A stretch of 59,710 bases of DNA from Candidatus Rokuibacteriota bacterium (GTDB lineage: Bacteria > Methylomirabilota > Methylomirabilia > Rokubacteriales > CSP1-6). Every line of letters starts with the position of its first letter. Position 1 is the first letter of the stretch. The stretch covers positions 1-59,710 of the forward strand of contig JAHFDK010000014.1 in the NCBI GenBank assembly GCA_023249095.1. The letters are read 5' to 3'. Positions 18,082 to 29,039 of the stretch are shown piece after piece. The position numbers and the translations under genes are program-made. A model generated the notes under the pieces. The model worked only from the letters and a program-made list of their open reading frames with translations. It was not told where the DNA came from and made no database searches.

Positions 18082-19515
18082 ATGCGCCGGACCAAGATCG
18101 TCTGCACGATCGGTCCCGCGAGCCGCAGCATCGCCGAGCTCGATCGCTTGGTTGGAGCTGGCCTGGACGTCGCCCGCCTCAACTTCTCGCATGGCACGCA
18201 CGACGAGCATGCGGAGGTTCTCCGGCGGCTCCGTGAGGGCGAGGCGCGATGGGGCCGCCCGGTCGCCATCCTTCAGGATTTGCAGGGGCCGAAGATCAGA
18301 CTGGGAACGTTCGGCCCGGGTGGGGGCGGCCGCGTCGACCTCGAGGCGGGCCGGACGTTCACCCTCTACGCCCGTCCGGTCGAGGGCACCGCGGAGCGGG
18401 CGTCGCTCACCCATCCGGAGTATTTGAAAGACCTGCGGCCCGACGACGAGATCTGGATGGACGACGGGATGATCCAGCTCCGCGTCGAAGCGGTGTCGCC
18501 GGGCGACGTGCGGTGCCGCGTGGTCGTCGGCGGCCGCATCAGCGATCACAAAGGGCTCTCGCTGCCGCGGGTCACGCTGCCGGTGTCCTGCCTGACGTCG
18601 AAGGACCGCGACGACCTGCGCTTCGGTCTCCGCCAGGGGGTGGACTTCATCGCGGTCTCGTTCGTCCGGTCGGCCGACGACATCGAAGAGGTGCGGAGCT
18701 TTCTGCGGGCCGAGGCCGCCGGGGACCTGCCGATCGTCGCGAAGCTCGAGCGTCACGAGATCCTCGGCAATCTCCCGGGCATCTTGAACAAGGTGGACGC
18801 GGTCATGGTCGCGCGCGGCGACCTCGGCGTCGACGTGCCGATCGAGGACGTGCCCCATATCCAGAAGGAGATCATTCGCCAGGCGCGCGACGCGAAGGTC
18901 CCGGTGATCGTCGCGACCCAGATGCTGGAGTCGATGGTCACGCATTTGCGGCCCACGCGCGCCGAGGTCTCGGACGTTTCGACGGCGATCTTCGACGGCG
19001 CCGACGCGATCATGCTGTCCGCCGAGACCGCCACCGGGCGGTATCCCGGCGAGGCGGTCTCCGTCATGGCGCGGATCGCCGAGCGCGCCGACGGCGCGAT
19101 GCTGGCCGTCGAACGGGAGCGGCGGCGGCGCCCGGGCGGGAGCTTCCAGGAGGCCATCTCCGACGCGGCGGCGACGGCGGCGCATGTGCTCGGCGCGCGC
19201 GCCATCGTGGCGTTCACCGAGTCGGGCTTCTCGGCCCGCCTCATCTCTCAGGCCCGGCCGGGCGTGCCGATCATTGCGCTGACGCCGTTCGTCGAGGTCC
19301 AGCGGCGGCTGGCGCTTTCGTGGGGTGTCTCCTCCCGTCTGATCCGAAAGGTCGAGACGACCGACGAGATGATCGAGGAGGTCGAAGCGACGCTGCTGAG
19401 CAACGGCTCGGTGCGCCCCAACGACGTGATCGTCATCATCTCCGGATCGCCCATGTGGGTCCGGGGAACGACGAATCTATTGAAGCTCCACCGGGTGGGC
19501 GAGCGCCGCGCGTGA
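18082..19515 (+). CDS. pyk: Pyruvate kinase
   Basis: RRTKIVCTIGPAS, ARLNFSHG, DLQGPKIR, MVARGDLG, ATQMLESM, MLSAETA. Confidence 0.97.
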   Translation: MRRTKIVCTIGPASRSIAELDRLVGAGLDVARLNFSHGTHDEHAEVLRRLREGEARWGRPVAILQDLQGPKIRLGTFGPGGGGRVDLEAGRTFTLYARPVEGTAERASLTHPEYLKDLRPDDEIWMDDGMIQLRVEAVSPGDVRCRVVVGGRISDHKGLSLPRVTLPVSCLTSKDRDDLRFGLRQGVDFIAVSFVRSADDIEEVRSFLRAEAAGDLPIVAKLERHEILGNLPGILNKVDAVMVARGDLGVDVPIEDVPHIQKEIIRQARDAKVPVIVATQMLESMVTHLRPTRAEVSDVSTAIFDGADAIMLSAETATGRYPGEAVSVMARIAERADGAMLAVERERRRRPGGSFQEAISDAAATAAHVLGARAIVAFTESGFSARLISQARPGVPIIALTPFVEVQRRLALSWGVSSRLIRKVETTDEMIEEVEATLLSNGSVRPNDVIVIISGSPMWVRGTTNLLKLHRVGERRA

Positions 19516-22500
19516 GGGTCGCGCTCGGGCGCCCGGCCGTCCGCCGCGTGGTCCCGGTGCTGATCGGCCTCGTCCTGCTCTGGTTCGTCGCGGGCATCTT
19601 CCTGGCGCGCACGCTCGCCGCGCGACACGACACCGCCGCCACCGCCACGCTCGCGTCCGTTCGAACGATCGTCGCGGCGGCGCTCGAGGAGGTGCGCCGC
19701 GAAGCGTCGCTCCTGGCCCAGGATCCGGCCATCGTCGAGGGTGCGAGCCGGAGTGACTGGGCCACCCTCGTGCGCGGCGCGTGGCCCCGGATTCTGGCGC
19801 TGACGCAGGAGCGCCGCGCCGACCTGCTGCTGATCGTGGACGCGAGCGGCGCTCCGCTCGTCCAGGTGCCGGCCGCACGGCACGTCGCCGCGGCGGCGGT
19901 CGCTCGACCTCCCGAGGCCGTCGCGCGGCTTGCCGTCATCGACGAGCGGCCCTACGTGCTCGGGATCGCGCCGATGCCCGCCGGTCTGGTGATCGTCGGG
20001 CGGCGCTTCGAGTCGCTCGCCGGAGCGGTCGCGCGCCTGCCATCGCGCCCTGCGGTCGTGGTGGTGGCGGGCGATCGAGCCCTCGGCTCCACATTGCCCG
20101 GCGCGCCCCCGCTCGGCTGGGACACCGCGGTGCGGGCCGGGCAGATCACGATCAGCGGGGAGCTCTGGTTCGCACGTCAGCTCGGCGAGGCCGACGGCGG
20201 TCTCTGGGCGCTCGTCTCGGCGCGGGAGCAGCGCCGGGAGAGCAGCCAGCTCTGGTTCTGGTGGGCGGTCTCGCTGTCGGCGGCCGGCGCCACCGCCGTT
20301 GGGATCGCAGCGGTTTCTGGATCGGAGCGTGGGGACGGAGCAACGGAGGGTGGCCCGAGACCGACACGACCGCGAGAGGCGCCCGCGGCCGGACGCGAGA
20401 CGTCCGAGGCCGGACGCGAAGCGTCCGACAACCGCCGGAGTCGGGAGCTCGAAGCGCTGCACGCGGTCGTGGTGGCGACCGGCAGCGGCGACGATCTGGC
20501 CCTCACCGCCGAGCGGACGCTCGAGGTCGTGTGCGGCGTCGCGGGGATCCCCTTCGGAGGTGTGTTCCGGTTCGACCGGGCAACCCAGACGCTCGTCCTC
20601 ACCGCCCACCGTGGTCTCCTGCCCGACGACGTCGAGCGCTTGCGTGTCCGCTCGCTCGACCAGAGCCACGTCGGCGAAGTGATCCGCAGCGGCCGGCCGG
20701 TCGTGACCGATCTCACGGCCTCCCGCGTGCTGGCGCCCGACGTCGTCGAGCGCGTGCAGGCCGGCGGCTACCGAACTCAGCTCGGGCTGCCGATTCCGGT
20801 GAACGGCGAGACATGGGGCGTCATGGCTCTCATCACGCGAGAGGCCAGGACCTTCGATGCTGATGAGCTGACGCTGCTTCAGGCGGTCGCGCACCAGGTG
20901 GGACAGGCGGTGGCGCGCACCGCGCTCCTGGCCGAGGGCCGGGAGCAGAGTCGTCGCCTCGAGACACTCGCGCGTCTGGCGCAGACGCTGACCGCCACGC
21001 TGTCGCTCGACGAGGTGTTCCGCCGCGTGGTCGATGCGGCGGTCGAGCTGTTCGGGTCGAGCACTGCGCAGCTCTGGCTCGTGGACGACGACGACCGCCA
21101 CGTCTCGCTGCGGGCGGCCGCGGGGATCCCGTCGTCGGAAGGCGTCGAGCGCCTGCGCGTTGGAGAAGGGCTCGTCGGGCTGGTCGTGGCGACCCGCGAG
21201 CCGCTGACGGCGGTCGACGCGCTTCGGGACCCGCGGGCGCGCGACGTCGAGCGGGTCCGCGCCGAAGGCGTGGTCAGCGTCGGAATCGTGCCACTTCAGC
21301 TGGGCGAACGGGTGCTGGGCGTTCTGGCCATCGGCGTACGGGCCCGGCACGAATACACCGCCGAGGAGCTGCGGCTCCTCGGCTTCCTCGCCTCGCACGC
21401 GGCGAACGCGATCAACAACGCCCAGCTCTATCGCGAATCGACCCGGCAAGCGCAGCGCATGAGCGCGCTGACCGACCTGGTGCGTCTGGTGTCCGAGACC
21501 CTCGACTTCGACCCCGCCGCGCAACGCGTCGCCGACAGCGTGTGCTCGTTGCTCGGGGCCCGGGCCTCGTGCCTCTACCGGATCGACTCGGCCTCCGACG
21601 CTCTCGTCGCGTTCGCGACCTCGAGGGACGCCGACCAGCTCTTCCAGTGGCAGCCGGTGCTGCCGAGCGGCACCGGGATCGCCGGGCTCGCCGTAAGCCA
21701 GCGCTGTTCGGTCGCTTCGGCCGACGTGCTGGCCGATTCTCGCATCACGTACACCGATGATATTCGTGCCCGTGTCGCGCAGGAGACGTACCGCTCCCTG
21801 CTCGCCGTTCCGCTGCTTGTGCAGGGACGAATGTTTGGCGCGCTCGCCGTCAGTGATCGCGTCGGACGCGTCTTCGATGAGTCTGAGATCCGCCTCGCGC
21901 AAGCGTTCGCCGATCAGGCCGCGCTGGCGCTGGAGAACGCGCGGCTCTACACGGAGGCGACGCGCCGACGGCTCGAAGCGGAAGAGCTGGCCCGGCTTGC
22001 GCGGAAGCTGACCGAGAGCCTCGATCCGCGAGCGGTCGGCGATCAGATCGCCGAGAGCGTGCTCGCGCTCTTCCAGGTGCGGTCGTCCGTGCTGCGATTG
22101 CTGCAGCCCGACGGGTCGCTGGTGACCCTGGCGCGCGGGGGCCGCCGCCGTGAGTCTTCGCCGCTCGGGGCCGTGCTGCCCGCGGGCGTCGGAGCGTCCG
22201 GGCTGGCGGCGGTCGAGGGTCGACCCGTGGCGTCGGCCGACGTCTTCAACGACCCGGAGATCGTCCTGAGCGAAGAGGTCGCGGAGGCGATGCGGCGCGC
22301 CGGCGACGGTGCGCTGCTGGCGGTGCCGCTCCGGGCGAAGGGCCGGATCATCGGCACGCTGTCGCTGGGGGATGCGTCCGGCCGGGTTTTTTCCGAGGCG
22401 GAGGTCGGGCTGCTCCAGGCCTTCGGCGACCAGGCGGCGCTCGCGCTCGAGAACGCCCGCCTCTTCTCGCTCGAGACGGCCCGTCGGGGGCAGATCGCGG

Positions 22501-24632
22501 CCCTCGCCGAGGCCGAACGCGAGTTCGCCCCCGAGCTCGACCCCGACCGTCTTCTCACGCTGGTCGTCGAACGCGCCACGCGGCTCTTCGACGCCCACGG
22601 CGTCATCTACCTCGTGGACGCGGACGGCGGGCTGGCGCCGCGCGCCTGGACGCGGGACGGCGGGTTCGAGGACCTCGCCGTCGCGTTCGGGCACGGCGTG
22701 GTCGGCGGCTGCGCCGAGCAGCGCCGCGGACTCATCGTCAACGACTACGCGGCGTCGCGTTTCGCCCTGCGCAAGTGGGTCGACATGGGCGTGCGCCGCG
22801 CGATGGCGTTCCCGCTCAGCGTGCAGGAACGGCTGCTCGGCGTCATCGCGATGAATCGCACCAGCCCCGCCGCCGCACCATTTCTCGACGAAGACCTGGC
22901 GGTTCTGGAGAGCTTCGCCGCCCGCGCGGCCATCGCCCTCGAGAACGCGCGACTCTACGCGCAGAACCGGCAGCAGGTCGAGGAGCTCTCGGTGCTCTAC
23001 GAGCTATCGCGGGCGGTCACCGGCCAGCTCGATCGCGCAACGCTGCTCGAGGCCATCCGGGCCCAGGTCGCCCGCATCCTCGACGCCGCCAACATGGCCA
23101 TCGTGCTCCTCGACGACGAGCGGCGGGACCTCGAGGTGGTGCTTCGTACCGTGGACGGTGCGCGCGACATGCGGACGCCCCTCCGATACCCGAGCCACGC
23201 GGGACTGATGTCGGTCGTGCTCGTGACGGGCGAGGCGGTCCTGACGGAGGACTACATCGCCGAGTGCGCGCGTCGCGGCGTCGAGCCCGTGGCGACCTTC
23301 GCACACCCGCGACACTGGCTCGGCGTCCCGATGAAGGCCGGGGACACGGTGATCGGCGTTCTGACGTTGCGGAGCGCGGACAGGGCATTCACCGAAGCCG
23401 ACGAGCGGCTGTTGACGAACATCGCCGATCTCGCCGCGCTGTCGCTGCGCAACGCGCGCCTCTTCGAGGAGCGCACACGCGCGTATGGCGAGCTGGCCGC
23501 GGCGCAGGACCAGCTCGTGCGCACGGAGAAGCTCCGCGCGCTCGGCGAGATGGCCTCGGGGGTGGCTCACGACTTCAACAACCTGCTCGCGTCGATCCTG
23601 GGACGGGCCCAGCTCACGCTCCAGCGAGTTCAAGATCCGCAGCTTCGCAAGTGGATCCAGGTCATCGAGCGCGCCGCCCTGGACGGCGCGCAGACCGTCC
23701 GCCGACTGCAGGAGTTTACGCGGATCCGCCGAGATCAGCAGCGTTTCGTCGCGGTCGACCTCAACGAGGTCGTGCGTGGCGCGCTCGAGATCACCCAGTC
23801 GCGCTGGCGGGAGGAGACGCGCAGCCGGGGCGTCGCGGTCGACGTGCAGACCTCGTTCGCGAGCCTGCCGCCGGTGGCGGGCGATCCCGCCGAGCTGCGC
23901 GAGGCGATGACCAATCTCATCCTGAACGCGGTGGACGCCATGCCGACGGGCGGCACCCTGACGCTGACCACGGCCGTCGAGAACAACGAGGTCGTGGTGA
24001 CGGTGGCCGACTCCGGCGTCGGCATCCCTGAGGCCATCCGGGGCAAGATCTTCGACCCGTTCTTCACCACGAAGGGACCGCAGGGCACCGGGCTCGGACT
24101 CTCGATGACGTACGGGATCCTCTCCCGTCACGGCGGGCGCATCACGGTCGAGAGCCCCGTCGGGCGCGGCACCGTGTTCCGCCTGACCTTTGCGCCTGGG
24201 GAAGCCTCCGACCTGGACGGGCCAGCCCCGGCACCCGAGCCCACCCCGCTTGGCGTCTCGCTGCGGTGCCTGGTCGTCGACGACGAGGAAGAGGTTGGTA
24301 CGGTGCTCGGCGACGTCCTGACGACGGGAGGCCATCGGGTCGTGGTGCTCACCGACGGAGGCGAGGCGATCGCGCGATTCCGCGCGGAGCCCTTCGATCT
24401 GGTGTTCACCGACCTGGCGATGCCGCGGGTCTCGGGCTGGCAGGTGGCGCAGGCGGTCAAGGAGATCGCGCCCGCGGTGCCGGTCGTCCTCGTCACCGGC
24501 TTCGGCGTCGAGCTGTCAGCGGAGGAGCGCCAGATCCACGGCGTAGACCTGGTGGTGGTGAAGCCGTTGAAGATCCAAGACGTCCTGGACGTCGTTGCGC
24601 GCGTGGCCCGCCGGCGCGCTCGGCAGACCTGA
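19512..24632 (+). CDS. Membrane hybrid sensor histidine kinase: periplasmic domain, six GAF domains, HisKA-HATPase, receiver
   Basis: GTG overlaps the pyk stop; repeated ..ALENARL(Y/F) GAF ends; H-box GVAHDFNN; NLILNAVDAM, FDPFFTTK, GTGLGL; REC VVDDE/TDLAMP. Confidence 0.9.
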   Translation: MRVALGRPAVRRVVPVLIGLVLLWFVAGIFLARTLAARHDTAATATLASVRTIVAAALEEVRREASLLAQDPAIVEGASRSDWATLVRGAWPRILALTQERRADLLLIVDASGAPLVQVPAARHVAAAAVARPPEAVARLAVIDERPYVLGIAPMPAGLVIVGRRFESLAGAVARLPSRPAVVVVAGDRALGSTLPGAPPLGWDTAVRAGQITISGELWFARQLGEADGGLWALVSAREQRRESSQLWFWWAVSLSAAGATAVGIAAVSGSERGDGATEGGPRPTRPREAPAAGRETSEAGREASDNRRSRELEALHAVVVATGSGDDLALTAERTLEVVCGVAGIPFGGVFRFDRATQTLVLTAHRGLLPDDVERLRVRSLDQSHVGEVIRSGRPVVTDLTASRVLAPDVVERVQAGGYRTQLGLPIPVNGETWGVMALITREARTFDADELTLLQAVAHQVGQAVARTALLAEGREQSRRLETLARLAQTLTATLSLDEVFRRVVDAAVELFGSSTAQLWLVDDDDRHVSLRAAAGIPSSEGVERLRVGEGLVGLVVATREPLTAVDALRDPRARDVERVRAEGVVSVGIVPLQLGERVLGVLAIGVRARHEYTAEELRLLGFLASHAANAINNAQLYRESTRQAQRMSALTDLVRLVSETLDFDPAAQRVADSVCSLLGARASCLYRIDSASDALVAFATSRDADQLFQWQPVLPSGTGIAGLAVSQRCSVASADVLADSRITYTDDIRARVAQETYRSLLAVPLLVQGRMFGALAVSDRVGRVFDESEIRLAQAFADQAALALENARLYTEATRRRLEAEELARLARKLTESLDPRAVGDQIAESVLALFQVRSSVLRLLQPDGSLVTLARGGRRRESSPLGAVLPAGVGASGLAAVEGRPVASADVFNDPEIVLSEEVAEAMRRAGDGALLAVPLRAKGRIIGTLSLGDASGRVFSEAEVGLLQAFGDQAALALENARLFSLETARRGQIAALAEAEREFAPELDPDRLLTLVVERATRLFDAHGVIYLVDADGGLAPRAWTRDGGFEDLAVAFGHGVVGGCAEQRRGLIVNDYAASRFALRKWVDMGVRRAMAFPLSVQERLLGVIAMNRTSPAAAPFLDEDLAVLESFAARAAIALENARLYAQNRQQVEELSVLYELSRAVTGQLDRATLLEAIRAQVARILDAANMAIVLLDDERRDLEVVLRTVDGARDMRTPLRYPSHAGLMSVVLVTGEAVLTEDYIAECARRGVEPVATFAHPRHWLGVPMKAGDTVIGVLTLRSADRAFTEADERLLTNIADLAALSLRNARLFEERTRAYGELAAAQDQLVRTEKLRALGEMASGVAHDFNNLLASILGRAQLTLQRVQDPQLRKWIQVIERAALDGAQTVRRLQEFTRIRRDQQRFVAVDLNEVVRGALEITQSRWREETRSRGVAVDVQTSFASLPPVAGDPAELREAMTNLILNAVDAMPTGGTLTLTTAVENNEVVVTVADSGVGIPEAIRGKIFDPFFTTKGPQGTGLGLSMTYGILSRHGGRITVESPVGRGTVFRLTFAPGEASDLDGPAPAPEPTPLGVSLRCLVVDDEEEVGTVLGDVLTTGGHRVVVLTDGGEAIARFRAEPFDLVFTDLAMPRVSGWQVAQAVKEIAPAVPVVLVTGFGVELSAEERQIHGVDLVVVKPLKIQDVLDVVARVARRRARQT

Positions 24633-24648
24633 ACGGAGGACGACCGCC

Positions 24649-25437
24649 ATGGACTTCCAGTTCTTGATCCTTGAGCGCCGCGATGGGGTCGCCACGATCA
24701 CGCTCAACCGCCCCGACGCGTTCAACGCGTTGAGTCTCGGCCTCGGCCGGGAGCTCTTCCACGCGGCGCTCGAGGTCGACGAGGACCCGGCGATCCGCTG
24801 CGTCGTGGTGACGGGCGCGGGTCGAGCCTTCTGCGCCGGCGGCGACGTCAAGGACTTCGTCGACAACCTGGAGCGCATCGGCGTGCTCGTCAAGGAGCTG
24901 ACGACCTATCTGCACGGGACCGTGTCCCGATTCTGTCGGAGCGACAAGCCCGTCATCATGGCGGTGAACGGCGTCGCGGCGGGCGGCGGGCTCAGCTTCG
25001 CCCTCTCCGGCGACCTGGTGGTCGCGGCCGAGTCCGCGCGGTTCACGATGGCCTACTCGAAGATCGCCGCCACGCCCGACGGGTCGTCGTCGTACTTTCT
25101 CCCGCGGTTGGTCGGTCTCCGGCGCGCGATGGAGCTCTACTTCACCAACCGCGTGCTCTCGGCGCGCGAAGCCCTGGAGTGGGGGCTGGTGACCCGCGTG
25201 GTGCCCGACGCCGAGCTCGCCACGGCGGTCGCGGCGCTCGCCCGCGAGATGGCCCAGGGACCGTCGAAGGCGTTCGGCGGCGCCAAGCGGCTCTTCCACC
25301 ACTCGACGTGGGAGAGCCTCGAGACGCAGATGGAGCTCGAAGCGCAGGCGATCGCCGCGAGCGGCCACACCGAAGACTTCCGCAACGGCGTGAGCGCGTT
25401 CGCCCGCAAGCAGGCGCCGACCTTCCGCGGACGGTGA
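24649..25437 (+). CDS. Enoyl-CoA hydratase/isomerase (PaaG-like)
   Basis: LNRPDAFNAL, AFCAGGDV, AVNGVAAGGG, TPDGSSSYFLPRLVG. Confidence 0.88.
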   Translation: MDFQFLILERRDGVATITLNRPDAFNALSLGLGRELFHAALEVDEDPAIRCVVVTGAGRAFCAGGDVKDFVDNLERIGVLVKELTTYLHGTVSRFCRSDKPVIMAVNGVAAGGGLSFALSGDLVVAAESARFTMAYSKIAATPDGSSSYFLPRLVGLRRAMELYFTNRVLSAREALEWGLVTRVVPDAELATAVAALAREMAQGPSKAFGGAKRLFHHSTWESLETQMELEAQAIAASGHTEDFRNGVSAFARKQAPTFRGR

Positions 25438-25460
25438 CGCTGATGCGCGCAGGAGGGGCT

Positions 25461-25724
25461 ATGCTGAACCCAACGGCCTTCGCCAACTCACTCGCGATAC
25501 TGTCGGGCGGGTTCTACATCCTTTTCTATGTCTTGGCGGTGGTCTGGCGAGACGCGTTCCGGTTCCTGTTCAACGCGCAGTTCTTCGGAGCCGACGTCGC
25601 CGCGCTCTTGCCCCAGCAGCTGACCTACGGCGGATTCGTCGGGACCTTCGTCGTCCTGGTCGTGTTCGCGTGGCTCGCCGCCTTCGGCTGGGCGTGGCTC
25701 TACAATCGGCTGGCGGCCTCGTAG
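25461..25724 (+). CDS. Small membrane protein (DUF5676-like)
   Basis: Hydrophobic helices ending ..FGWAWLYNRL; RBS AGGAGG. Confidence 0.55.
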   Translation: MLNPTAFANSLAILSGGFYILFYVLAVVWRDAFRFLFNAQFFGADVAALLPQQLTYGGFVGTFVVLVVFAWLAAFGWAWLYNRLAAS

Positions 25725-25805
25725 CGGGGCCGCCTGAGCGCGTCGACCGGCACGGGGACCTCGAGTACAATCTCGATGGCGATCCCCTACTTTGAGGAGA
25801 CTCAC

Positions 25806-26585
25806 ATGACGACCAAGGATGCCGCTCGGGTTTCCAGAACCGCCGTCAGGCTCTACTACCGGCCCGGCTGATCGTCCTGCGCCAAGACGAAGGAGCTCCT
25901 CTCGTCTTGGGGGGTCGAGTTCGACCCGGTCGACGTGCAGGCGTACCCGGAAGGCTACGCCGAGCTCAAGCGGTTGGGGATCGGACGGGTGCCCGCGGTG
26001 ACGGTCGGCGACCGCGCCGCGCACGGATGGAACCCGCCGGCGTACGCCGAGCTGCTCGGCATTCCATACTCAGCGACGGTGAAGCTGTCGCCGACCGAGC
26101 TGGCCAAGCGGCTCGACATCATCCTGGATTCGACGCAGGGGCTCATCCGCGGCGTGCCGGACGAGCACATGGACTGGCGGCCGCCCGAGCGGAATCGGAC
26201 CCTGCGCAACCTCGGCTATCACGTCTTCCGGCTGTCGCTGGCATTCGTGGACGGGATGGACCTCGGCGAGTTCCCGGAGTCCTGGCTGCTGGACCAGGCG
26301 CCCGCCGATCTTCGCGACGGGCCGGCCATCGCGCGCTACGGCGCGCTCGTGCGCGGACGCATCACCGGGTGGTTCGAGGGGGCATCGCCCCGCGAGTTCG
26401 AGCGCGTGATCAAGGTCTACTATGGCCCCCAGTCGGGCCACGACCTGCTCGAGCGCACGACGTGGCACGCCGCACAGCACCTGCGCCAGCTCTACGCCCT
26501 GGCCGAGCGCCTTGTGGTCACGCCGCCGGGACCGATGCCGACCGACGCGTTCGTGGGACTGCCCCTTCCCGACGCTCTCTGGTGA
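25806..26585 (+). CDS. Glutaredoxin-like (USSC) + DinB-domain fusion selenoprotein, Sec at codon 22
   Basis: ATG 25806 (RBS GAGGAG) reads VRLYYRPG-U-SSCAKTKELL..WGVEF..VDV in frame with ORF 25935-26585; cis-Pro RVP; DinB histidines LGYHVF and WHAAQH; hairpin 25882-25910. Confidence 0.85.
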
Positions 26586-27352
26586 CGAGGGTCGACTACG
26601 ACCGGAGTCTCTGGCGCGCGTATCGCGCCGGCCGTGCCCTCTCCGAGGACACCGGCCGGCTCTGGATGGACGCGATCGCCCGCCACCTCGGCGGCACGCG
26701 CTCAGGCCTGACGGTCCTCGATCTCGGAGCCGGTACGGGGCGCTTCGCCGTCCTGCTGGCCGATGCGTTCGACGCCCGCGTCGTCGCCGTCGAGCCGTCG
26801 GAGAAGATGCGCGTGGAGGCGGAGCGTCACAGCGCGCATCCGCGAGTTGACCACCGCGCTGGCGCCGCGGAGACGATCCCCGCCGCCGACACCGAGTTCG
26901 ATTTCGCGTTCCTCTCGATGGTCATCCATCACGTCGGGGACGTCGCCGCCTGCGCGCGTGAGCTCCACCGGGTGGTCAAGCCGGGCGGGCTCGTGTTCAT
27001 CCGCAACGTCTTCAGCGGGCGCCTGGACGGTGTGCCTCACTACGCGTTCTTCCCCTCGGCACGCGCCGTCGACGAGAGGCGCCTGCCGACTCTCGAGGCA
27101 GTGCGGCAGGCCTTCGTCGCGCAGGGATTCGAGCTCACGGCCCTCGATACGCTGGTGCAGGAGATCGACCCGAGCCTCACCGCCCACTACGAGCGAATCA
27201 CGCAGCGAGCGCTGTCGACGTTCGAGTTGATCACCGACGCCGAGTTCGAGGAAGGGCTCACCCGGATGCGCCACGCCGCCGCCCGCGAGACCACGCCGAC
27301 TCCCGTCCTCGAAGCCATCGACCTGCTCGTCCTCCGCCGACAAACGACCTGA
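26582..27352 (+). CDS. Class I SAM-dependent methyltransferase
   Basis: VLDLGAGTGRF, AVEPSEKM, VKPGG; GTG start overlaps the upstream stop. Confidence 0.88.
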   Translation: MTRVDYDRSLWRAYRAGRALSEDTGRLWMDAIARHLGGTRSGLTVLDLGAGTGRFAVLLADAFDARVVAVEPSEKMRVEAERHSAHPRVDHRAGAAETIPAADTEFDFAFLSMVIHHVGDVAACARELHRVVKPGGLVFIRNVFSGRLDGVPHYAFFPSARAVDERRLPTLEAVRQAFVAQGFELTALDTLVQEIDPSLTAHYERITQRALSTFELITDAEFEEGLTRMRHAAARETTPTPVLEAIDLLVLRRQTT

Positions 27353-27355
27353 CCG

Positions 27356-28291
27356 CTAGTCGTCTTCAGCCCAGGCCGTCGTGAGCCGACGAGCGAGGGC
27401 GCGGTGACCCCTGATGAAGTAGGCGAGCATGGCGCCGGTCGCGAGGAGGTTGCCGAGGAGGACGGTCCATCCCGCCAGCTCGTCCAGGACCCACTTCGCC
27501 GCGATCAACACGCCGCCGATGAACAACACCTCGAACGCCGTGAAGAAGATCACCAGGGCGAAGACGAAGAGCGGCTGGCGCTCCGCGCCCGCGATCAGCG
27601 CGGCGCCGACAATTCCGAATAACGCGAACGCGATCCCGTGCACGACGGTGTAGGAGGCGATCGCGGCGAGCGAGTCGGTCTGGCGGAGGATCCCCGTGCC
27701 CAGGAGCCTCGGCGTCCGGAGCGGCTCGCCCTGGATCCAGTCGATCGCCAGGAACCACAGCGCGACGGCGGCGGCGCCGAGCAGGCCGGCCACGACGCCC
27801 TCGCGGAACACGCTGCCCCAGGAGCCGATCAGCGTGCGCGACAGGGCGCGGTGGGCGCGGAAGAAGTACCAGAGCATCGCGAGGGAGGCGAGGAGGTTGC
27901 CGCCGAGGATCGCCCACCAGACCAGGGCGCCCAGCATCGACTTCCCGAGCGCCCCGACGATGCCGAAGACGAACACCTCGAAGCTGGCGAAGAGGATCAC
28001 GAAGGCGACAAACAGCGTAGGCTCGCGCTCGCTGACGGCCATGAGGCTCGCGGCGACGACGCCGAACGCGATGAACGCCAGGCCGTGGATGATCGTGTAG
28101 CCGAGGACGTTGCCCACGGTGGGCCGAAGTCCAATCGGGTTGGTCACGCCCTGGAAGACCGCGGCGCCCAGGAGCCCCGGGGTCAGGAACGGCTGGCCGC
28201 GCCAGATGTCGAAGAGAAGGAACCAGACGGCGACGACCGCCGCGCCGATCAAGCCGGCCACGACCCCTTCCTTCAGGATCGACCGCTGCAC
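27356..28291 (-). CDS. Integral membrane protein with internal tandem duplication
   Basis: Two homologous halves, each starting EGVVAGL.GAA.VA.WFL..D...G.P..TP.LLG. Confidence 0.75.
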   Translation of the reverse strand: MQRSILKEGVVAGLIGAAVVAVWFLLFDIWRGQPFLTPGLLGAAVFQGVTNPIGLRPTVGNVLGYTIIHGLAFIAFGVVAASLMAVSEREPTLFVAFVILFASFEVFVFGIVGALGKSMLGALVWWAILGGNLLASLAMLWYFFRAHRALSRTLIGSWGSVFREGVVAGLLGAAAVALWFLAIDWIQGEPLRTPRLLGTGILRQTDSLAAIASYTVVHGIAFALFGIVGAALIAGAERQPLFVFALVIFFTAFEVLFIGGVLIAAKWVLDELAGWTVLLGNLLATGAMLAYFIRGHRALARRLTTAWAEDD

Positions 28292-28346: not shown

Positions 28347-29039
28347 TCAGACCGCGGGTGGCCCGAGATAGATGCGACCCGGCTCCGCTCGCCCGTTCTC
28401 GGGGTCGCGGGCGAATCTGACGCCGTAGTCGGAGTAACGAAGGTGCGGCGGCAGAGACGAGCGATGGGCGACCGGGCTCCACGGGTCGGCGTGACGCCAC
28501 GCGCCGCCGCGGCTCACGCGCCGCGTGCCGGCTGCCGGGCCGCGGGGATTCCGGTCCGGCGAGCGGCGGTAATAGTCCTCGGCGAACCAGTCGCCGCACC
28601 ACTCATGGCAGACGCCGGAGAGATCGGTGAGCCCCAGCGTGTTGCCCGGCGTCCCGCCGACACGGGGCGGACGGTCGAACGTGACGCCAGGCTTCGCGTC
28701 GCCCCACGGGTAGCGCCGACCGTCGAGGCCGCCGCGCGCGGCCTTTTCCCACTCGGCCTCCGTCGGCAGCCGCGCGCCCGACCACTCGGCGAACGCGCCG
28801 GCTTCGGTCCACGAGAGACCGACGACGGGTTGGCTCGGGTCGGCGAACGCCGGGTCGGACCAGAACGGCGGCGATGAGGCGCCGGTGGCCGCCATGTACG
28901 CGGCGAAGTCTCCGTTCGTCGCCGGTGTGCGGGCGATGAGGAAGGTGTCGACCCAGACGACATGGGGCGGGCGCTCGGACGGGTGACCGTGAGCCCAGCC
29001 CATGCTGAACGGCCCCGCTGGAACGCGCGCGAAGTCCAC
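28347..29039 (-). CDS. Formylglycine-generating enzyme (FGE-sulfatase/SUMF1/EgtB C-terminal) domain protein
   Basis: VPAGPFSMG, RLPTEAEWEKAARGG, YPWG, GL.DLSG..EWC.DW, RGGAW, GVRFAR. Confidence 0.88.
   Translation of the reverse strand: MDFARVPAGPFSMGWAHGHPSERPPHVVWVDTFLIARTPATNGDFAAYMAATGASSPPFWSDPAFADPSQPVVGLSWTEAGAFAEWSGARLPTEAEWEKAARGGLDGRRYPWGDAKPGVTFDRPPRVGGTPGNTLGLTDLSGVCHEWCGDWFAEDYYRRSPDRNPRGPAAGTRRVSRGGAWRHADPWSPVAHRSSLPPHLRYSDYGVRFARDPENGRAEPGRIYLGPPAV

Follow-up and report, generated by a model that had tools for sequence, protein, structure and literature searches.

Roughly 60 nucleotides into an otherwise continuous reading frame, the locus studied here contains an in-frame TGA, which raises the question whether this triplet ends a short peptide or is read as selenocysteine (Sec) and, in the latter case, what kind of protein is made. 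The whole stretch of DNA that was analysed, subsequently designated the window, comprises 59,710 nucleotides. We conclude that positions 25806-26585 of the forward strand very probably represent one gene, which encodes a 259-residue selenoprotein decoded with Sec at codon 22 and composed of a glutaredoxin (Grx)-like and a DinB domain. Translation starts at ATG 25806 and ends at the TGA at 26583-26585, while the codon-22 TGA lies within the active-site segment RLYYRPG-U-SSC (Table 1). The elements on which the original prediction of such a fusion had been built, i.e. the ORF, the YYRPG-U-SSC motif, the DinB His ligands and a methyltransferase gene overlapping the stop codon, were all recovered at their proposed positions.

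Table 1. Features of the Grx-DinB selenoprotein gene and of its neighbours in the window.
Feature	Position	Strand	Basis
Enoyl-CoA hydratase/isomerase gene	24595..25437	+	Pfam ECH_1 7e-57
Small two-TM DUF5676 gene, between hydratase and selenoprotein genes	25440..25724	+	Pfam PF18926 4e-10
RBS GAGGAG	25793..25798	+	7 nt 5' of ATG; read off the sequence
Grx-DinB selenoprotein CDS (259 aa), including stop	25806..26585	+	translation with TGA=U, Pfam, 80 related loci, AF2
Glutaredoxin/NrdH-like thioredoxin-fold domain, residues 14-84	25845..26057	+	Pfam PF00462, PDB profiles, VIA
UGA codon 22, probable Sec; residue 1 of U-S-S-C redox motif	25869..25871	+	TGA/TGC counts across loci
Cys25 codon, resolving Cys of UxxC	25878..25880	+	invariant in 69 aligned proteins
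SECIS-like hairpin inside the CDS (AKTKELLSSW)	25882..25910	+	fold, covariation, present in TGA forms only
DinB/YfiT-like four-helix bundle, residues 96-235	26091..26510	+	Pfam PF12867, VIA
DinB His139 codon	26220..26222	+	invariant in 69 sequences
DinB His221 codon	26466..26468	+	invariant in 69 sequences
DinB His225 codon	26478..26480	+	invariant in 69 sequences
Class I SAM methyltransferase gene	26582..27352	+	Pfam Methyltransf_11 9e-23
FGE-sulfatase-fold gene, recurrent neighbour	28347..29039	-	Pfam PF03781 6e-44

For the identity of codon 22, 80 related genome loci were collected, two of which lost the site to contig ends. Among the remaining 78 loci the codon is TGA in 77 cases and TGC in a single case, locus L073. 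As the original prediction had expected, Cys homologues are not restricted to this locus: a natural Cys form reading YYRPGCSSC is represented by P0072, and in a distant metagenomic clade (clade 2) the aligned column of 80 loci contains 17 TGA and 60 TGC codons, with three unresolved. Moreover, at least 52 full-length Cys forms with the pattern C[ST][SAG]C were present among the best 150 representatives. On a tree of 145 distinct sequences, at least three changes are required to explain the exchange of Sec and Cys. Conservation of the N-terminal segment across the TGA was likewise confirmed. It flanks the codon on both sides (FYRPG-U-SSCAKTKELLSSWG), with FYRPG preceding and SSCAKTKELL following it at the protein level. 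Within the three codons located 5' of the TGA, conservation is 90% or higher in columns 1, 2, 4, 5, 7 and 8, and variation is confined to columns 3, 6 and 9, i.e. to third positions. The gene was found in 125 of 201 sampled genomes of the phylum, and exactly one TGA is present in about 109 of the 110 full-length matches from this sample, as counted from the table of matches.

The genetic code of the organism is the standard one, because TGA terminates 20 of the 32 long ORFs of the window. The genome provides the machinery for Sec insertion: selA, selB, selD and tRNA-Sec (69.8 bits) all score above curated cut-offs, and selD contains a TGA of its own. In RNA libraries of two studies, contigs cover positions 25400-26129 and 25595-25975 with the TGA intact; these contigs are strandless, may include DNA and document the presence of the region rather than transcript ends or translation, and they lend weak support to the Sec reading. 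Judged from the comparison of sequences, decoding of the codon-22 TGA as Sec is strongly supported.

The putative decoding signal is a hairpin formed by CCAAGACGA and TCGTCTTGG, which comprises nine perfect pairs, or 12 pairs with a bulge, and begins 13 nt past the U of the UGA. Hairpins located 13-18 nt past the UGA are also present in selD and in two Grx-like Sec genes of the host genome. The hairpin had been described as the strongest SECIS-like structure in the window, a view that we could not uphold. Perfect hairpins with a stem of at least 9 bp occur eight times in the window as compared to a mean of 8.5 in 20 shuffled versions, two of these eight are longer, and the energy of the 71-nt fold yields z = -1.13, with 29 of 200 shuffles folding equally well. 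By itself, the hairpin is not above chance. What gives it weight is where it lies, how well it is conserved, the covariation of its pairs and the fact that Cys forms lack it. Hairpin cells are paired in 89% of cases versus 40-54% in slid registers, two pairs show compensatory changes from AU to CG or GC, and 31 cells are changed on both sides versus 15.0 +/- 2.4 after shuffling, a value that is reached in none of 500 shuffles.

When counted in the fixed register, the longest helix of the TGA forms has a median of 8 bp in clade 1 (n=63) and of 7 bp in clade 2 (n=15) versus a median of 2 bp and a maximum of 5 bp in the TGC forms (n=47); the sequences compared are kin rather than independent, and the p-value is therefore overstated. 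Six of the 15 clade-2 TGA forms are devoid of the fixed-register hairpin and possess a different hairpin farther downstream instead. It is only this fixed-register helix count that tells TGA and TGC forms apart: raw folding energies between +10 and +54 in clade 2 did not separate them (-12.3 versus -12.4 kcal/mol, p = 0.49). Scanning of the whole window with Rfam gathering thresholds returned no matches, and an E-value scan of positions 25840-25960 yielded only a chance Guanidine-III match on the opposite strand (E 3.2). To our knowledge, there is no usable Rfam model for bacterial SECIS elements of this kind.

The proposed fusion of a Grx-like UxxC domain with a DinB domain stands, with TGA in 77 of 78 loci and both Pfam models above their cut-offs. 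Glutaredoxin PF00462 matches residues 14-70 with 43.9 bits (cut-off 22.9) and DinB_2 PF12867 matches residues 105-229 with 34.9 bits (cut-off 24.8). An AF2 model (pLDDT 90.6, pTM 0.84) displays both folds: residues 14-84 show the strand-helix pattern expected of a thioredoxin fold, with U22-S-S-C25 sitting just before helix 23-34. Structural comparison using VIA yielded Z-scores of 11.4-13.1 for the Grx domain with NrdH/Grx/Trx-like structures, the best solved match being the entry 'Dithiol cGrx1' (7c10; E 2e-12, 31% identity, Z 11.4). The DinB domain reached Z 12.8-15.8 with DinB/YfiT structures, including 6iz2 (Z 15.8, rmsd 2.2, 144 aligned residues), 3dka (Z 15.6) and YfiT 1rxq (Z 13.4).

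In 69 aligned sequences, U22, C25, P63 and the three His residues His139, His221 and His225 are invariant, and so are R131, R142, R217 and R227. Sec22 and Cys25 are the sole conserved redox residues, as the other Cys are not conserved. P63 aligns with the VP of cGrx1 and is the candidate cis-Pro of the Grx domain, which also carries a GWNP motif. This motif, HGWNP, follows strand 4 and is presumably nearer to NrdH than to the GSH-binding motif of Grx. The His residues of the DinB domain occur in the contexts GYH(139)VFR and WH(221)AAQH(225). From the positions of these motifs, we infer that His139 and H221xxxH225 are equivalent to the ligands of YfiT and form a three-His metal site.

Because of the two domain families involved, a function as thiol-transferase or reductase is a reasonable inference. 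Tentatively, we regard the protein as a self-contained metal-dependent thiol/selenol transferase or reductase with a tethered UxxC redoxin, which is possible rather than probable. The UGA at codon 22 is very probably read by SelA, SelB, SelD and tRNA-Sec as directed by the stem-loop at 25882-25910. Sec22 occupies the attacking position of the Sec22-Ser-Ser-Cys25 motif in an NrdH/glutaredoxin-type fold, which a short linker joins to the DinB/YfiT bundle and its putative three-His site. In the tentative mechanism, the DinB domain may hold a divalent metal together with a thiol-reactive substrate, e.g. a disulfide, an electrophile or the conjugate of a low-molecular-weight thiol. The selenolate of the tethered redoxin would then attack the bound substrate, Cys25 would resolve the adduct leaving a selenenylsulfide, and a thioredoxin-reductase-type system would re-reduce the latter. 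An extension of this scheme, which appears unlikely to us, has Sec22 reaching the three-His site so that selenolate and metal act jointly, in Rokubacteria maybe along with an FGE-like neighbour as a split EgtB/SenA-like C-S/C-Se catalyst. If such a selenolate-metal site were real, the very large, mostly uncharacterised DinB superfamily would gain its first selenium-dependent enzyme.

Alternatively, Sec22/Cys25 and the three His residues could constitute a metal or metalloid site, which binds, senses or detoxifies a soft metal or oxyanion (Hg, Cu, As, Se) with no turnover of organic thiols. The invariance of the three His and four Arg residues would agree with this idea, as Arg would fit an anionic ligand, and many of the selenoprotein families listed in PMC13188914 (Table 1) are metal-related, e.g. 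the mercuric transport protein, MerB-like SaoL and metal-binding MbdU. However, UxxC plus cis-Pro is the classical redox-catalytic arrangement and metal-resistance genes do not recur beside the gene. There are also ArsC/Spx-type matches at the N-terminus (E 0.02-0.04), but these are weak and sub-threshold, with ArsC far under its cut-off. We consider a pure metal site to be a doubtful explanation.

Further alternatives are suggested by the genomic neighbourhood. The most conserved neighbour is the enoyl-CoA hydratase gene: in 59 of 80 loci it precedes the selenoprotein gene in the same orientation, mostly at a distance of no more than about 25 nt; the DUF5676 gene is present in only seven. An FGE-like gene is located in the 3-kb flank of 46 of the 80 loci, including L088 (53% identity), in which the other synteny is gone. 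Its best NCBIfam matches are EgtB (1.2e-25; 90.4 versus a cut-off of 360 bits) and SenA (3.7e-25; 89.1 versus 420 bits). No conserved partner gene was found to recur when the flanking ORFs of 19 distant clade-1 and 32 clade-2 loci were analyzed with Pfam and the window neighbours were compared to clade 2 by tblastn.

According to one scenario, the DinB domain and the FGE-like protein make up a split EgtB/OvoA/SenA-type C-S/C-Se enzyme that is served by the Sec redoxin. Persistence of the FGE-like gene despite lost synteny and its top NCBIfam matches speak for this idea, and so does the architecture of EgtB, OvoA and SenA, which are DinB + FGE-sulfatase fusions whose structures (4x8b, 8k5i, 8ux5) match the DinB domain with Z 10.6. 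However, stand-alone DinB/YfiT proteins fit this domain better (Z 13-16), the EgtB score is far below its cut-off, and the FGE-like gene is encoded on the opposite strand, with one or two genes in between in the window. It is found neither near the most distant clade-1 homologues nor near any of the 80 clade-2 loci, and synteny in one order may reflect inheritance only. A split enzyme of this type is therefore very unlikely.

In the original prediction, the selenoprotein was thought to be functionally coupled to the SAM methyltransferase, e.g. in a common pathway of thiol/selenol methylation. The GTG start codon at 26582 indeed overlaps the stop codon of the selenoprotein gene as GTGA, an arrangement that is kept in all 13 loci possessing the methyltransferase gene downstream, and several of the selenoprotein families listed in PMC13188914 are methyltransferase-linked. 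Nonetheless, only these 13 of the 80 related loci possess the gene; L022 and L023, the two closest relatives (93% identity), lack it, as do all more distant ones, and its product is a generic Methyltransf_11 protein for which no specific NCBIfam model scores above cut-off. The claim of coupling was thus not sustained, and a shared pathway is highly improbable.

Within one order of Methylomirabilota/Rokubacteria, nearly every sampled genome has the Grx-DinB selenoprotein gene (122 of 141, two families), and the protein family is widespread in soil and groundwater. Gene callers truncate its members to 216-229 aa starting 3' of the TGA, and all of the 28 closest database entries (80-90% identity) comprise 209-218 aa with the active site missing. 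Because the family is truncated in this manner almost throughout, the redox centre is hidden in current databases. That the TGA is instead an ordinary stop, the true gene being a 216-aa DinB protein starting at GTG 25935 with the upstream 21 codons non-coding or a separate peptide, would suit the length of most database entries (216-229 aa), the status of TGA as commonest stop in the window and a hairpin that alone is no better than chance, but is barely conceivable given the amino-acid conservation spanning the TGA with silent-site variation upstream, the Cys codons in the aligned column of P0072, L073 and 60 metagenome loci, the complete Sec machinery, and a short product in which the Grx domain, although confidently folded in the model, would be deprived of its active site and of strand 1. 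As a lead only, the Grx + DinB_2 clusters of the Cys form P0072 in the ESM Atlas have Pseudomonadota as their commonest known phylum.

The description as a candidate under-described family proved apt. The family is absent from a 2026 inventory of 119 prokaryotic selenoprotein families, in which Grx is listed only generically (PMC13188914 Table 1), and the protein scores below the cut-off of every NCBIfam model. The term 'DinB' does not occur in PMC13188914, PMC12013277 or PMC13326102. Literature on selenoproteins or selenocysteine in combination with DinB yielded nothing on a Grx-DinB family, which may already be filed elsewhere, likeliest as 'Grx'. A MAG of the Methylomirabilota phylum has been credited with the largest predicted bacterial selenoproteome (2026 review); recognising the Grx-DinB protein adds one more family to selenoproteome counts. 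It also links selenium to the DinB superfamily, most members of which have no known substrate, and the tethered redoxin hints at the chemistry that may be involved. As Sec and Cys forms are interleaved and differ correspondingly in the presence of the hairpin, they provide a clean natural set for studying Sec/Cys exchange and the evolution of SECIS elements within coding sequences.

Among known systems, Sec-containing glutaredoxin (PF00462, UxxC) is listed as experimentally verified (PMC13188914 Table 1). The Grx-DinB protein shares with it the thioredoxin fold, Sec as first residue of UxxC where helix 1 begins, as well as the existence of Cys orthologues, but known Sec-glutaredoxins are stand-alone proteins of ~80-90 aa, whereas here a DinB domain of 165 aa is attached. 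UXX-star and HUGP/GUXX-star proteins (NF041212, NF041211, NF047338, NF045501) are also Grx-like selenoproteins, some of them fused. Models of this type match residues 10-74 weakly (E 2.7e-7 to 1e-4), all under cut-off; NF041212 scores 30.7 versus 66 bits. Judged by the model names, Sec is located three residues from the C-terminus in those proteins, whereas it is residue 22 of 259 in the Grx-DinB protein and takes the N-terminal CxxC position. Similarity to NrdH and YruB is seen in the best NCBIfam matches (YruB TIGR02196, 5.7e-10; NrdH TIGR02194, 1.5e-8) and in the match to E. coli NrdH 1h75 (profile 3e-9; Z 11.8, rmsd 2.1 over 75 residues). However, the scores stay far below the cut-offs (39.5 versus 88.55 bits for YruB, 34.7 versus 85.75 for NrdH), i.e. 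the resemblance to NrdH is limited to the fold, and the domain differs by the lack of a ribonucleotide-reductase context, by Sec replacing Cys and by being fused.

The succession of an N-terminal thioredoxin fold, with the catalytic residue at helix 1, and an all-helical domain is reminiscent of Cys-type GSTs (omega, lambda, Xi, CLIC). GST matches over residues 11-259 are weak (Foldseek TM 0.25-0.34, rmsd >10 A; VIA Z 8-9, rmsd ~5 A) and the helical part is a DinB metal-binding-type bundle rather than a GST C-domain, making this an analogy and not membership. With EgtB, OvoA and SenA the protein shares a DinB-type domain with a three-His site and, in many loci, the proximity of an FGE-like gene. 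In contrast to those enzymes, which are without a Grx domain, DinB and FGE reside on separate genes on opposite strands, and a single DinB+FGE protein above the equivalog cut-off is missing. The DinB/YfiT superfamily includes the bacillithiol transferase BstA, the mycothiol S-transferase MST and the mycothiol-dependent maleylpyruvate isomerase (MDMPI). A four-helix bundle, one His plus HxxxH and the DinB_2 match above cut-off place the C-terminal domain close to these proteins, with Z-scores of 15.8 for DR0053, 13.4 for YfiT, 13.1 for MDMPI, 12.8 for MST and 9.8 for BstA at 10-18% sequence identity to solved members. Known members stand alone and employ a free low-molecular-weight thiol, whereas the Grx-DinB protein carries a covalently tethered Sec/Cys redoxin.

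The gene starts with an ATG located 7 bases 3' of the sequence GAGGAG, and its reading frame is interrupted only once, by the TGA at codon 22. Readthrough yields a product of 259 residues beginning with MTTKDAARVSRTAVRLYYRPG-U-SSCAKTKELLSSWG. Residues 14–70 match Pfam Glutaredoxin (43.9 bits, cut-off 22.9) and residues 105–229 match DinB_2 (34.9 bits, cut-off 24.8). No NCBIfam model reached its cut-off; the top matches, i.e. Grx-like YruB, NrdH and Uxx-star models, stayed far under threshold, and the DinB part had no match in this collection. Gene calling with table 11 returned only a 216-aa ORF at this locus. Nearly all of the closest database entries comprise 216–229 aa and start 3' of the TGA, identifying them as truncated gene calls.

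Comparison of related sequences indicates that the gene almost certainly encodes a selenoprotein. Species-representative genomes were scanned for relatives; of the 131 obtained, the best 80 were retained. The active site lies on the contig in 78 of these loci, as contig ends cut L034 and L084, and is encoded with TGA in 77 cases and with TGC in one (L073). Residues on both sides of the TGA stay conserved down to 47% overall identity, and the preceding Arg-Pro-Gly codons vary almost only at third positions, the pattern expected if purifying selection acts on a translated segment. Thus, the N-terminal segment is conserved, and the Cys homologues that the Sec22 assignment of the original prediction implied were also found: besides L073, a natural Cys form exists in the 258-aa database protein P0072 (YYRPGCSSC). 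Among 1.84 billion cluster representatives searched with a profile, 2711 relatives were detected, and 211 of these had an E-value of 1e-30 or lower. The best 150 representatives include at least 52 full-length proteins of the Cys type, which carry C[ST][SAG]C (CSSC in 27 and CTSC in 15 of 46 caught by pattern), while many others begin just 3' of the active-site motif. Metagenome DNA of such truncated forms, forming a more distant clade of 80 loci (clade 2), carried TGA in 17, TGC in 60 and an unresolved codon in 3 loci at the same column (e.g. WQPG-U-TSC, FTQPG-U-SSC, WRPGCSSC). On an unrooted FastTree phylogeny comprising 90 Sec and 55 Cys forms (145 distinct proteins), calculated with the Sec/Cys column masked, at least three state changes are needed, as compared to 44 with shuffled labels.

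Within the phylum, the gene is present in 125 of 201 sampled genomes (E of 1e-30 or better). It occurs in 106 of 125 genomes of the window's family, in all 16 genomes of another family within that order and in 2 of 59 sampled genomes outside these two families. Exactly one TGA was found in about 109 of 110 full-length matches, as tallied from the table of matches, and none in the remaining one (G178:C139). Three of the genomes counted (G101, G058, G029) are unpublished, and no claim depends on these alone.

Several side observations concern the family. One MAG harbors two Sec paralogues representing the 67%- and 47%-identity forms (L047/L099) and another one a Cys and a Sec form (L073/L097). 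Several phylum genomes possess DinB-only paralogues besides the fused Sec form, which cover profile positions 80–249, contain no stop codon and lack the Grx domain. The full-length relative P0267 has Ser at both active-site positions (SPGSTSSL), and P0186 (721 aa) carries the entire Grx-DinB unit at residues 471–715.

A genetic code with sense TGA is excluded, since 20 of the window's 32 long mechanical ORFs terminate with TGA. The genome encodes selD, selB, selA and tRNA-Sec, all above curated cut-offs; the latter three are grouped on one contig, and in selD itself a TGA occupies the usual Sec position and precedes a hairpin. This genome probably encodes additional selenoprotein redoxins as well, namely four Grx-like ORFs (L103 to L106) that are hit by the N-domain profile and have an in-frame TGA.

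Positions of the features discussed (C-numbers are contigs; entries without contig or locus refer to the window)
Feature	Position	Strand	Remarks
2127-aa ORF	18249-24632	+	ends just upstream of hydratase gene; second half of ORF-listing translation looks like multi-GAF sensor histidine kinase plus receiver domain
Selenoprotein gene	25806-26585	+	ATG at 25806
Interrupting TGA	25869-25871	+	codon 22
Hairpin	25882-25910		
216-aa ORF	start 25935		GTG start
Terminal TGA	26583-26585	+	
Metatranscriptome contig, first study	25400-26129		6 differences
Metatranscriptome contig, second study	25595-25975		3 differences
311-aa membrane protein	27356-28291	-	follows FGE-sulfatase-fold gene, same strand; no Pfam family
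FGE-sulfatase-fold protein	28347-29039	-	CHEWC motif invariant
selB, selA, tRNA-Sec	C139:15947-20690		
selD	C436:5426-6370		
L103	C479:3493-3729		short, stand-alone
L104	C448:11470-11706		short, stand-alone
L105	C26:7201-7428		YSNIG-U-GAC; hairpin about 18 nt past UGA
L106	C502:3174-3410		YSQPG-U-FFC; hairpin about 18 nt past UGA
DinB-only paralogue	G030:C163:15177-15683		
DinB-only paralogue	G049:C8:716842-717306		
Selenoprotein relative	L085:3001-4521		appears broken or mis-assembled; frame continues into methyltransferase frame (511 aa)
Selenoprotein relative	L072:2995-3234		appears broken or mis-assembled; stop after 80 aa

The hairpin downstream of the TGA, in which CCAAGACGA pairs with TCGTCTTGG and whose stem can be extended to 12 pairs with one bulge, had been regarded as the strongest of the window. 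It is present, but two of the eight distinct perfect hairpins with stems of at least 9 bp in the 60-kb window are longer, and shuffled sequences contain 8.5 of these on average (20 shuffles). The 71-nt fold has a z of -1.13, with 29 of 200 shuffles folding equally well, and Rfam gave no match for the hairpin or the window. Taken alone, the hairpin is not above chance, and the case for it is therefore built on comparison with relatives. Across 75 distinct sequences, 89% of the cells of the 12-pair helix are paired, versus 40–54% when the 3' arm is slid. Two-sided changes affect 31 cells versus 15.0 ± 2.4 after shuffling, a value reached by none of 500 shuffles; at the two upper pairs, A-U is replaced by C-G in 11 and by G-C in 18 sequences. 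In a register fixed relative to the codon, the longest helix has a median of 8 bp in TGA forms of clade 1, i.e. the loci including the window gene (n = 63), and of 7 bp in clade-2 TGA forms (n = 15; at least 7 bp in 9), versus 2 bp (median; at most 5) in clade-2 TGC forms (n = 47); other registers yield 2.2–3.1. The corresponding rank test (p = 1.7e-6) overstates the case, as the sequences are related. The six clade-2 TGA forms lacking this helix have an alternative hairpin about 20 nt further 3'. In the window's own genome, the hairpins of selD and of two short Grx-like Sec genes start 13–18 nt past the UGA.

Metatranscriptome contigs from two studies show 6 and 3 differences to the window, respectively, and retain the TGA. 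They provide weak support for expression, because RNA libraries can hold DNA and the contigs are strandless.

An AlphaFold2 model based on 69 sequences (pLDDT 90.6, pTM 0.84) bears out the proposed fusion, with a strand-helix thioredoxin fold (residues 14–84), a linker and a DinB-type bundle of four long helices (residues 96–235). The N-terminal domain matches BC3987 (Z 13.1), NrdH (1h75, Z 11.8) and cGrx1 (7c10, Z 11.4; profile E 2e-12). The C-terminal domain best matches stand-alone DinB/YfiT proteins, namely DR0053 (6iz2; Z 15.8, rmsd 2.2, 144 residues), YjoA (3dka, Z 15.6) and YfiT (1rxq, Z 13.4), followed by mycothiol-dependent maleylpyruvate isomerase (Z 13.1), mycothiol S-transferase (8f5v, Z 12.8), EgtB, SenA and OvsA (Z about 10.6) and BstA (Z 9.8). 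GSTs match only loosely, spanning both domains. Invariant in the 69 sequences are G21, U22, S24, C25, P63, G74, W75 and P77 in the N-domain and R131, H139, F141, R142, R217, T218, W220, H221, Q224, H225, R227 and Q228 in the DinB part; no conserved cysteine other than C25 exists among them.

DinB/STL proteins are described in PMC10950700 as metal-dependent thiol S-transferases using mycothiol, bacillithiol or glutathione and possessing a three-His site. Judging from the domain families, the simplest reading, which we put forward tentatively, is that the protein could be a self-contained transferase or reductase, because a UxxC redoxin with an attacking Sec is tethered to DinB and provides the sole conserved redox residues. 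The DinB domain would hold metal and substrate, the selenolate would attack, Cys25 would resolve the adduct giving a selenenylsulfide, and an external reductase would recycle the enzyme. A putative metal- or metalloid-binding role, in which Sec22 and Cys25 would act jointly with the three histidines, appears unlikely.

Neighboring genes were counted in the 3-kb flanks of the 80 loci, and the counts are lower bounds, as contig ends cut some flanks. At least 59 loci have a co-oriented enoyl-CoA hydratase gene upstream, in most cases no more than about 25 nt away; the FGE-sulfatase-fold gene is found in at least 46, the membrane protein gene in at least 31 and DUF5676 in at least 7. None of the window's neighbors recurs beside clade-2 loci or homologues with 52% identity or less, the FGE-sulfatase-fold gene next to L088 (53% identity) being the only exception to the lost synteny. 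The Grx-DinB selenoprotein therefore looks self-sufficient, and synteny may reflect inheritance within one order. The same neighborhood bears on a putative split EgtB-like enzyme: EgtB and SenA are the top NCBIfam matches of the FGE-like neighbor, at a quarter of the cut-off, and given its absence beside distant homologues such an arrangement is very improbable. The originally proposed coupling to the SAM methyltransferase, whose gene overlaps the selenoprotein stop in at least 13 loci and is missing from the two closest relatives, is hardly credible.

With regard to the FGE-sulfatase-fold protein itself, many homologues contain GHPCERP, with Ser at that point in the window. Mechanical extension of its ORF to 378–850 aa in L036, L052, L053, L061 and L065 may reflect fusion or a coordinate artefact; in L036 and L065 the extended ORF includes the membrane-protein match, and in L061 it runs antisense into the selenoprotein gene.

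In a 2026 review (PMC13188914), prokaryotic selenoproteins are listed under 119 families or subfamilies, and Deng et al. 2026 is cited for 63 selenoprotein genes predicted in a Methylomirabilota MAG. Table 1 of this review contains several Grx-like entries besides 'Glutaredoxin (Grx) PF00462 UxxC', and none for DinB; the word 'DinB' is absent from the main texts of the review and of the deep-Sep and BSepDB papers, and full-text literature searches returned nothing relevant to a Grx-DinB selenoprotein. Homology pipelines may already count the gene as 'Grx'. Databases also contain, under automatic names, proteins in which a Cys-type Grx is combined with DinB; the Sec redoxin in such a fusion is what the lists compared (PMC13188914 Table 1, deep-Sep, BSepDB) leave undescribed.
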